Source of the DNA: Mustelus asterias
Taxonomy: Eukaryota
Length of the DNA stretch: 64,000 nucleotides
Assembly (NCBI RefSeq): GCF_964213995.1
Contig: NC_135812.1
Coordinates: 82,584,001 to 82,648,000, forward strand
Reading direction: 5' to 3'
Shown: one piece after another, positions 8,996 to 10,281 of the stretch
Numbering within the stretch: position 1 is the stretch's first letter
How the letters are laid out: each line of letters starts with the position of its first letter
Program-made: the position numbers and the translations under genes
Notes under the pieces: model-generated
Told to the model about the DNA's origin: nothing
The model's database searches: none
What the model saw: the letters and a program-made list of their open reading frames with translations, nothing else

Positions 8996-9461
8996 AAACT
9001 TTTAACAAAATACTTTGACGGAAGAAAAATCTACTTTGATATAGTTTCATTCACAGGACATTTTATAACCAAATATTTTTCCAGCAAAAGTGAATGATAG
9101 TTGTTTCTGTTGGTAAATGTAGACACCTAATTGCACCAAGTTCCACAAATGGCAGAAGATAAATGACCAATTGAGCCATTGTGGGGTGGGACTTAAACTA
9201 AGTGCCTGTCCTCCAAGAAGGGATAATTTCACATCCATCAAAACGTGGAGTACCCAGCAGCCATGGTTTAACGCCTTATCTACAAGGGTTTCAAGGATGC
9301 AGCGACTTCCCAGGGACAACACTATAGTGTCAGATCCTTCACAGCAAAAATCAGGGGATCCGCCCTCCCTACTCCTGCCCCAGGCCAACAGGATCCGCCC
9401 TCTGTCTAGTTACATTGTAACTCTCAGCACACCACTCCCTGCTTGGACAGAAAGGTCATTC

Positions 9462-9769
9462 AATCAAATCAAATCCAATTCAGAGTCTCAGCAAGTTGAG
9501 ACATTTCCGATCCAGGCTGACAAGACAGGGCAAGCGACCAAATCACCCTGTCCTGGGCCTGATCTACATGAGCCAAGCTGATTGGAGGAGCAAAGCAACA
9601 CCTCCTCCAAGGCTTGAGCTTATTTGCATCTTAGCCAAAAGGCCGAGGCACCGCTTTTAAAAATTGCTTCATATGAAACATATGAAGCTTGAATGTAACC
9701 TAATGACCTCAACCAAGTGCAGCATCCAATCCATACTACACTTGATCTTAGCCAAAAGGCCGAGAAGCG
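9462..9769 (-). mobile_element. U2 snRNA-headed, highly structured SINE-like retroposon
   Basis: Starts with an exact match to U2 nt 3-39 (9733-9769). Second U2 nt 8-27 copy at 9628-9647, four hairpins, (GATTT)-like 3' end, direct repeat TCATTC at 9456-9461 and 9770-9775. Confidence 0.7.
9733..9769 (-). pseudogene. U2 snRNA 5' fragment (nt 3-39)
   Basis: CGCTTCTCGGCCTTTTGGCTAAGATCAAGTGTAGTAT is identical to the U2 5' end including the branch-point recognition sequence GTAGTA. It diverges afterwards and no U2 3' domain follows. Confidence 0.9.
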
Positions 9770-9920
9770 TCATTCCCAACTCCAAAGTCCAGTGCACTCA
9801 AGTAAAGGGTTATGGGAGGGACCACAGATAACAAGACACCACACGTGGAGAGGCGGCTTTGAACTGGCGCTGACAGAGAAGGATAATCCTTCCAGGTTTA
9901 ATTTCCACCCCCCAACCAAA

Positions 9921-10041: not shown

Positions 10042-10188
10042 TTAATTCCCCCCACCCCCCGGCTAGAGGACGCAAATGAGGAAGGGTCCAATTGACCCCC
10101 ACGATTTCAATCCGTCTTTCCCTTATTCCCAACTAAGAGCGCTTCAATCTCCGTCTATAAGGAAGCCTGTCGTCAGTCAATCAGCCAC

Positions 10189-10281
10189 CTCCGGTACGGA
10201 GACCTCCAGCCGCTCAGCACCCTCTCCCGGCGATGGCGGCGCCACAAACACGAAGCGCTTGGCCCGCGCCAGGCCGCTCAT
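10189..10281 (-). CDS. METTL23: METTL23 coding exon 1 (MSGLARAKRFVFVAPPSPGEGAERLEVSVPE)
   Basis: ATG at 10281 with G at -3, 93 nt, phase-0 donor GAG|GTGGCT. Splices in frame to exon 2 (LEVSVPE|VLDPQYGMY), resembling the N-terminus of longer vertebrate METTL23 forms. Not in the ORF track because it is short. Confidence 0.8.

Follow-up and report, generated by a model that had tools for sequence, protein, structure and literature searches.

What copies a SINE that begins with the 5' end of U2 snRNA, and from which promoter is its RNA made? Both questions are raised by a locus in the 64,000-nt stretch of the Mustelus asterias genome analysed here (the window). SINEU elements have been described from crocodilians only, and the paper describing them left open how promoter-less snRNA-headed elements are transcribed (PMC4494074). 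The crocodilian-only distribution is repeated in a 2017 review (PMC5381603) and likewise in PMC4758252 and PMC5786205.

The window contains a single copy of the family, located on the minus strand and belonging to the subfamily with the commonest hairpin tips. Its features are the following:

9458..9769, minus strand: whole SINE copy, with 95–97% identity over ~310 nt to 39 other best-scoring places
9769..9775, minus strand: 5' copy of the 7-bp target site duplication, from the sequence; its last base is common to U2 nt 3
9455..9461, minus strand: 3' copy of the 7-bp duplication, from the sequence; it overlaps the last 4 bases of the element
9733..9769, minus strand: U2 snRNA head, nt 3–39, identical to the array U2 genes and stopping where Keno inserts (Keno junction nt 38/39)
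9697..9725, minus strand: fold-back arm, an imperfect inverted copy of the head (predicted fold; kept in all subfamilies; inverted-copy test, 1/1000 shuffles)
9666..9688, minus strand: short palindromic hairpin, its length varying between subfamilies (fold and subfamily comparison)
9628..9647, minus strand: second U2 copy, stem-loop I (U2 nt 8–27, exact)
9567..9620, minus strand: hairpin module 1, an arm plus decayed U2 nt ~31–61 of the second U2 copy (via the older subfamily and the sister family)
9509..9564, minus strand: hairpin module 2, a duplicate of module 1 (module comparison in the older subfamily, 0/1000 shuffles)
9458..9502, minus strand: last hairpin and T-rich end, a decayed U2 stem-loop IIb and Sm site (via the older subfamily against U2 31–110, 0/1000)

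A sequence-only reading of this DNA had reported an exact match to U2 nt 3–39 at 9769–9733, which was borne out against the U2 genes of the same genome, and all four of the hairpins that it named were recovered in place. It had also described a direct repeat of 6 bp, TCATTC; the repeat is present, but it is 7 bp long (GAATGAC, at 9769–9775 and 9455–9461). Compared with the family, the window copy lacks U2 nt 1–2 and, at its other end, the last ~10 nt and the A tail, so that the family extends further in the 3' direction than had been supposed. From the overlap of the 3' duplication with the last 4 bases of the element, we infer internal priming by microhomology. Two features had been overlooked, namely the second copy of U2 stem-loop I at 9628–9647 and a 15-bp stem, found in the predicted fold, that joins head nt 25–39 to 9711–9725. 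The sole Rfam match in the window was to U2 and was marginal (46.1 bits, compared with about 190 for true U2 genes); no tRNA, 5S or 7SL match was found there, and the head is thus not of the classical polymerase III SINE type. A functional U2 snRNA was rejected for the window copy, given that stem-loops III–IV are not recognizable, the Sm motif is shortened and the Rfam score is low. Separately, a GC-rich stretch at 10187–10281 (minus strand), ~400 bp upstream of the SINE, may be a first coding exon, and a possible splice donor lies at ~10720 (plus strand); together, they suggest a bidirectional promoter near the window copy.

Genome-wide, a 23-base motif from the 3' end of the SINE occurs 5,168 times (control 0), which is a lower bound on the copy number. 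A search of the shark's own genome gave 2,387 candidates, and the best 40, which were scored, are the window and the 39 places at 95–97% listed above. For the U2-head motif, the count is 3,256; of the first 30 heads, taken unselected, 28 lead into the SINE body (24 by rule and 4 by reading). The element is ~300–335 nt long (about 325), starts at U2 nt 1 and ends in a short A tail. Statistics on the ends were taken from 90 loci in order along one contig, which yielded 105 distinct copies reaching the 3' end. Of these copies, 30 start at nt 1–3, 75 at nt 15 or earlier and 21 beyond nt 40. An A run of at least 4 is present in 99, a target duplication of 8–23 bp in 45 (as against 5 of 594 swapped-flank controls), and 16 lie directly behind the tail of another copy. 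The common U2 head, common 3' end and variable target duplications by which the sequence-only reading would have recognized a SINE family were all found. Between the end of the element and the A tail, we observed a T run of 0–11 bases, which varies within subfamilies and could come from RNA uridylation or slippage.

Clustering of 120 near-full copies resolved six subfamilies (102 copies, with 18 unclustered), whose members differ by 2.5–4% from the majority rows of their subfamilies. An older subfamily was recovered separately, besides these six, and at least seven subfamilies have replaced one another. The subfamilies share diagnostic hairpin tips, one of them in 140 exact copies, and the U2 nt 1–36/39 head is present in all. 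No intact present-day master copy was found in the genome. As judged from these sequences, the element is a real, young, high-copy U2-derived SINE, and the family is almost certainly of the SINEU kind.

The body had been taken for non-U2 sequence, and is largely decayed U2, as its older relatives reveal. An older sister family of ~210 nt (at least 40 places scored; 18 of 19 copies at 92–96% to their row) is a reworked whole U2 with an inserted arm and an A tail, and its match to U2 nt 31–90 beats all 1000 shuffles (0/1000). The second half of the older subfamily matches both the first 78 nt of the sister family and U2 nt 31–110 (0/1000 shuffles in each case), and its two large hairpin modules are duplicates of one another (0/1000 shuffles). 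When the youngest subfamily is compared with U2 directly, the match is at chance level (342/1000 shuffles); the window copy still matches the sister family (0/1000 shuffles). An Sm-type motif is present in the older subfamily and shortened in the young ones. Given the matches through the sister family and the duplication of modules, the element consists of a U2 head followed by a fold-back arm, a short hairpin and then a second U2, which is decayed, has one module doubled and ends in what remains of stem-loop IIb and of the Sm site. The junction of head and body is fixed within each subfamily, and the sister family is probably a relative of the sequence from which the second half of the SINE descends. 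No significant match to Keno, the Tx1 LINE considered below, was obtained for the SINE body outside the U2 pieces, and the SINE arm bears a weak likeness to the 5' end of Keno (21 to 324 of 1000 shuffles).

The fold-back arm is predicted to pair with U2 nt 11–39, the branch-point recognition sequence included. The 320-nt stretch folds better than shuffles on both strands (z −6.1 in sense and −5.7 in antisense, 0/100 shuffles each), so that folding energy alone does not pick the strand; the older subfamily folds better in antisense than in sense. Stems are kept and tips are swapped between subfamilies, with 15 of 105 paired columns variable compared with 81 of 160 unpaired ones, in a structure derived from the same alignment. 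The three non-Watson–Crick pairs of the 13-bp stem are, as the sequence-only reading had noticed, G–U on the U2-sense strand. Its conclusion that they betray selection on an RNA structure is weaker than it was stated, since the pairs are real but covariation is not above shuffles and A-to-G editing can make G–U pairs without selection. The aligned copies stay at shuffle level: in formal covariation analysis of 38 copies, 97.6% of cells were paired, and score and double changes were not clearly above shuffles (263, 192 and 16 of 500). A strand-neutral count of G–U against A–C gave 8 versus 4 (p 0.39), with no secure G–U excess; a looser count gave 14 versus 2, but it leans towards the sense-strand structure.

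Rare sense-strand changes in 171 distinct copies comprise 154 A>G among 12,108 A and 74 T>C among 16,165 T (odds ratio 2.8). Four of the 171 copies have 19, 13, 11 and 7 private A>G changes, on the sense strand only and each with at most one T>C, and the A>G excess persists without those four (104 versus 72 T>C). ADAR favours a 5' U or A neighbour and disfavours a 5' G. In the four copies, taken for this purpose from an earlier set of 224 that counted overlapping-locus copies repeatedly, the 5' neighbour of the changed A is U or A in 43 of 63 cases versus 42%, and 5' G is avoided. These A>G-rich copies are probably fossils of ADAR editing of the folded RNA. Given the A>G excess and the neighbour bias, we infer that there was a sense RNA, which was double-stranded and underwent editing before it was reverse-transcribed; such editing offers a mutational route to G–U pairs. 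Polarized changes between lineages were borderline (A>G 8 of 43 versus T>C 3 of 58, p 0.05), and the changes from U2 to the sister family showed no A>G excess.

As for the machinery that moves the SINE, the U2-targeting LINE that had been anticipated as its partner exists: a Keno-type Tx1 LINE sits in a unit of the U2 arrays, inserted at U2 nt 38/39, with nt 39–58 (20 bp) duplicated. ORF1 of this LINE encodes ZCCHC3-type domains and a CCHC knuckle, and ORF2 an apurinic-type endonuclease together with RT; a frame of 1,087 aa is present in another copy. The 3' flank of the LINE at U2 nt ~38 is TCTGTTCTTATCAGTTTAAT, as for Keno in PMC6136364, and the partner fits Keno by insertion site and enzyme type. 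We also observed that the Keno LINE begins with U2 nt ~5–36, followed by an arm predicted to fold over that head, much like that of the SINE (L051:1509-1570, L104), and that ~92 nt of upstream sequence from the variant U2 are attached to one of the dispersed Keno copies. There are 286 exact Keno 3' ends genome-wide. On two contigs, 30 ends were examined: U2 nt 39 onward follows none of them, and three have a U2 head directly behind them. To judge by these flanks, Keno is relaxed in its target specificity here.

The SINE and this LINE have sites in common. SINE tails adjoin U2 nt 39 at 8 places (7 near-full copies and 1 short 3' fragment; control 0), and only about 9 of >5,000 SINE copies were observed at this site. 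The sequence-only reading had thought it worth looking inside U2 arrays for copies behind a promoter; such copies were found, and in one array gene a SINE, a truncated Keno and a SINE are stacked at the nt 38/39 site. Off target, the sites of solitary SINEs read AGY|A in 13 of 43 cases, compared with 4.8% in the background (p 6e-8; 43 of 63 sites were scored, the other 20 being excluded because they are tandem or lack a leading A). The same AGY|A is found in 4 of 10 scorable sites of dispersed Keno. L1-type targeting (TT|AAAA) was rejected, with 1 of 43 SINE sites. Inside other SINE copies, a reversed U2-like site, which exists because the fold-back arm on the other strand mimics the U2 target, hosts 15 SINE insertions and 1 of 30 Keno ends. 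Like Keno, the older subfamily terminates in AATAAAGTA, and both have AATAAA shortly before the tail, a motif lost in the young subfamilies; beyond AATAAAGTA, no 3' tail common to SINE and LINE was found. Among the LINEs, target preference was compared for the Keno-type LINE alone. Given the common sites, Keno is very probably the motor of the SINE. The two identities proposed earlier, a SINEU-like family and a non-autonomous passenger of a U2-targeting LINE, are both supported and describe one thing.

True U2 genes occur in arrays on one contig. An 8,035-bp U2 repeat unit has been tandemly amplified together with a Keno copy (G000:C24:44.81-44.94 Mb, L051), the latter broken by another SINE and stops. 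A variant U2 gene, tandemly repeated in units of 448 bp and preceded by upstream sequence of its own (G000:C21:28.05-28.08 Mb; L068, L305, L307), has 85–90% identity to the main U2 beyond nt 38, with stem changes that look compensatory by eye, and is possibly a stage-specific U2. Its cluster is heavily interrupted by Keno copies and is flanked by several kb of (GATTT/GAATT)-like repeat (L304:160-4940, L306:2170-4670), which resembles the T-rich end of the SINE.

Eight SINE copies, from several subfamilies, are fused at +1 to U2 upstream sequence. The upstream sequence of the main U2 has one SINE exactly at +1, with no duplication (1 match), and that of the variant U2 has seven, of which one lies within the array and the other six are spread over five dispersed loci. 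In the main array, the fused copy bears a deletion that was observed a single time, and the one in the variant array is decayed and differs from its class at about 10 positions. Composites of U2-array sequence and SINE were also detected, five of six bounded by 10–18-bp duplications; U2-array flanks enclosed between target duplications indicate that array-resident copies were transcribed and re-mobilized. Three of these composites start with the 5' part of a U2 gene, which implies that the SINE inserted in such a gene, was transcribed from it and was then retroposed again. Because the composites with U2-array flanks extend upstream beyond the fused +1, they show read-through from U2 arrays and not initiation at that +1. 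Among 20 sequencing runs, 6, from two organisms, contain half or more of the sampled SINE words; no RNA run was among those listed in this search. Taking loci, junctions and flanks together, U2 genes are the probable source loci, and it is likely that the SINE is copied by a Keno-type Tx1 LINE and transcribed from copies in U2 genes, whose promoter it would borrow.

The strongest competitor is a family moved by Keno and transcribed mainly by read-through from Keno or host genes, in which case the U2 fusions would be by-products and +1 would be an end of reverse transcription or processing. The sequence upstream of +1 in the composites, one of which has Keno ends on both sides, is as expected of read-through, and so are the SINE copies behind the tails of others and the U2 heads behind Keno ends; the window copy itself stands in sense ~400 bp behind a possible first exon. 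However, when 47 copies with intact 5' ends were scanned, U2-array upstream sequences turned up 8 times, and the flanks inspected showed no further 5' extension common to several copies. The 30 of 105 copies that start at nt 1–3 begin in the region known as the start of U2 transcription. We consider read-through from Keno or host genes unlikely as the main source.

Less probable still is an internal promoter that would make any intact copy a source, the candidates being the octamer ATGCAAAT in the body and a polymerase III promoter. Among near-full copies of the younger subfamilies, 107 of 120 contain the octamer, but all 29 of the older subfamily lack it, and it seems to have arisen incidentally through two changes within the second copy of U2. 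Given its absence from the older subfamily, the octamer as an internal enhancer was dropped, as was a tandem HeT-A-like promoter. Runs of four and five T stop polymerase III, and such T4 and T5 runs are present in both the head and the body of the element, in which Rfam finds only U2. The oligo-T argument against polymerase III has also been made for SINEU (PMC4494074).

A host-useful non-coding RNA, either a U2 variant or a decoy, could also be the source, with the dispersed copies as processed pseudogenes. The conserved stems, the turnover of loops and the Sm-type motif kept by the older subfamily would suit such an RNA, but the succession of at least seven subfamilies, the shortening of the Sm motif in the young ones and the decay of the array-resident copies would not, and no conserved single-copy gene was seen; we regard this origin as highly improbable. 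Independent chimeras, formed like U6-L1 chimeras by template switching from a LINE or mRNA tail onto U2 RNA, are barely credible and already largely refuted: switching to snRNAs is common in Tx1 systems (PMC4494074) and 1 of 30 U2 heads lies on unrelated sequence, but one body, itself U2-derived and carrying an arm complementary to the head, is common to the 28 others that lead into the SINE, with a junction fixed per subfamily. The family propagates as a unit from master copies and not as such chimeras. The lone U2 5' fragment on unrelated sequence (L285:1490-1540) is the only one of the 30 heads outside the SINE and sister families.

Transcription from U2 genes and copying by Keno can be combined into a putative cycle. 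The Keno endonuclease would nick the U2 gene at nt 38/39, and the SINE RNA would be reverse-transcribed from its A tail. The head cDNA would anneal to the gene's own nt 1–39 and yield a junction without duplication, as proposed for R2 with upstream 28S sequence; in the R2 model, annealing of this kind is expected to leave a seamless 5' junction (PMC3774820). Polymerase II would start at U2 +1, and the head would therefore be regenerated from the host gene in each round. The SINE RNA would fold, pairing away the branch-point recognition sequence of the head, and would sometimes be A-to-I edited. Most new copies would insert off target, at AGY|A sites that offer no promoter, and would be dead ends, while a variant re-entering a U2 gene would found a new subfamily. 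That masking is the purpose of the fold-back is, in our view, an evenly balanced proposition. With a little less confidence than that, the SINE may tentatively be described as a self-renewing parasite of the U2 locus, made almost entirely of U2 sequence: it would keep its promoter by homing via the Keno endonuclease, its fold-back arm (the design of the Keno 5' end) would disarm the head, and it would evolve partly through ADAR edits, from A–U to G–U between subfamilies.

Among known systems, the SINE is closest in description to SINEU-1 and SINEU-3 (Kojima 2015, PMC4494074), the comparison being one of descriptions and not of body sequences. Like them, it has a U2-derived head, a length of <500 bp, an A tail and internal T runs, forms tandem copies around one duplication and is very probably mobilized by a Tx1 LINE that itself bears a U2 head. 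With SINEU-1, it shares a history in which U2 pieces were added repeatedly to the 5' end (PMC4494074), and SINEU-3 and the 210-nt sister family are alike by design, both being reworked U2. Crocodilian SINEU are mostly old and are targeted to a Mariner element by Tx1-Mar (PMC4494074), whereas the SINE described here is young, its partner targets U2 itself, it is found fused to U2 upstream sequence and its head is folded back. The LINE has the same 3' flanking U2 sequence and apurinic-type endonuclease as Keno (PMC6136364, PMC4640811), and the novelty lies in its non-coding passenger, not in the LINE. Utopia resembles this partner in using the same U2 site and, in crocodilians, in its relaxed specificity, but it has a restriction-like endonuclease (PMC4640811), whereas that of the partner is apurinic-type. 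R2/SIDE elements in 28S rRNA genes are likewise non-autonomous residents of a multicopy RNA gene that are co-transcribed with it (PMC3414825), and upstream target sequence on the R2 RNA gives uniform 5' junctions, as here (PMC3774820). R2 depends on polymerase I and a self-cleaving ribozyme and stays site-specific (PMC3414825, PMC3774820); unlike it, the SINE would use the snRNA start site directly and has thousands of copies elsewhere. In the literature searched, with most subscription papers outside it, neither a U2-headed SINE of cartilaginous fishes nor one that homes into U2 genes was listed, and none of the titles concerned ADAR scars in SINE copies. The family may already be catalogued in Repbase/Dfam.

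Within the literature searched, these data extend snRNA-headed SINEs beyond crocodilians and link them directly to the U2-targeting Keno lineage. Probable RNA-editing scars are found fixed in genomic copies, and a young family with thousands of clean insertions offers a ready phylogenetic marker. For SINEU as a whole, the question of how such elements are transcribed receives a testable answer, namely transcription from U2 genes, to which individual loci, their junctions and transduced flanks point.
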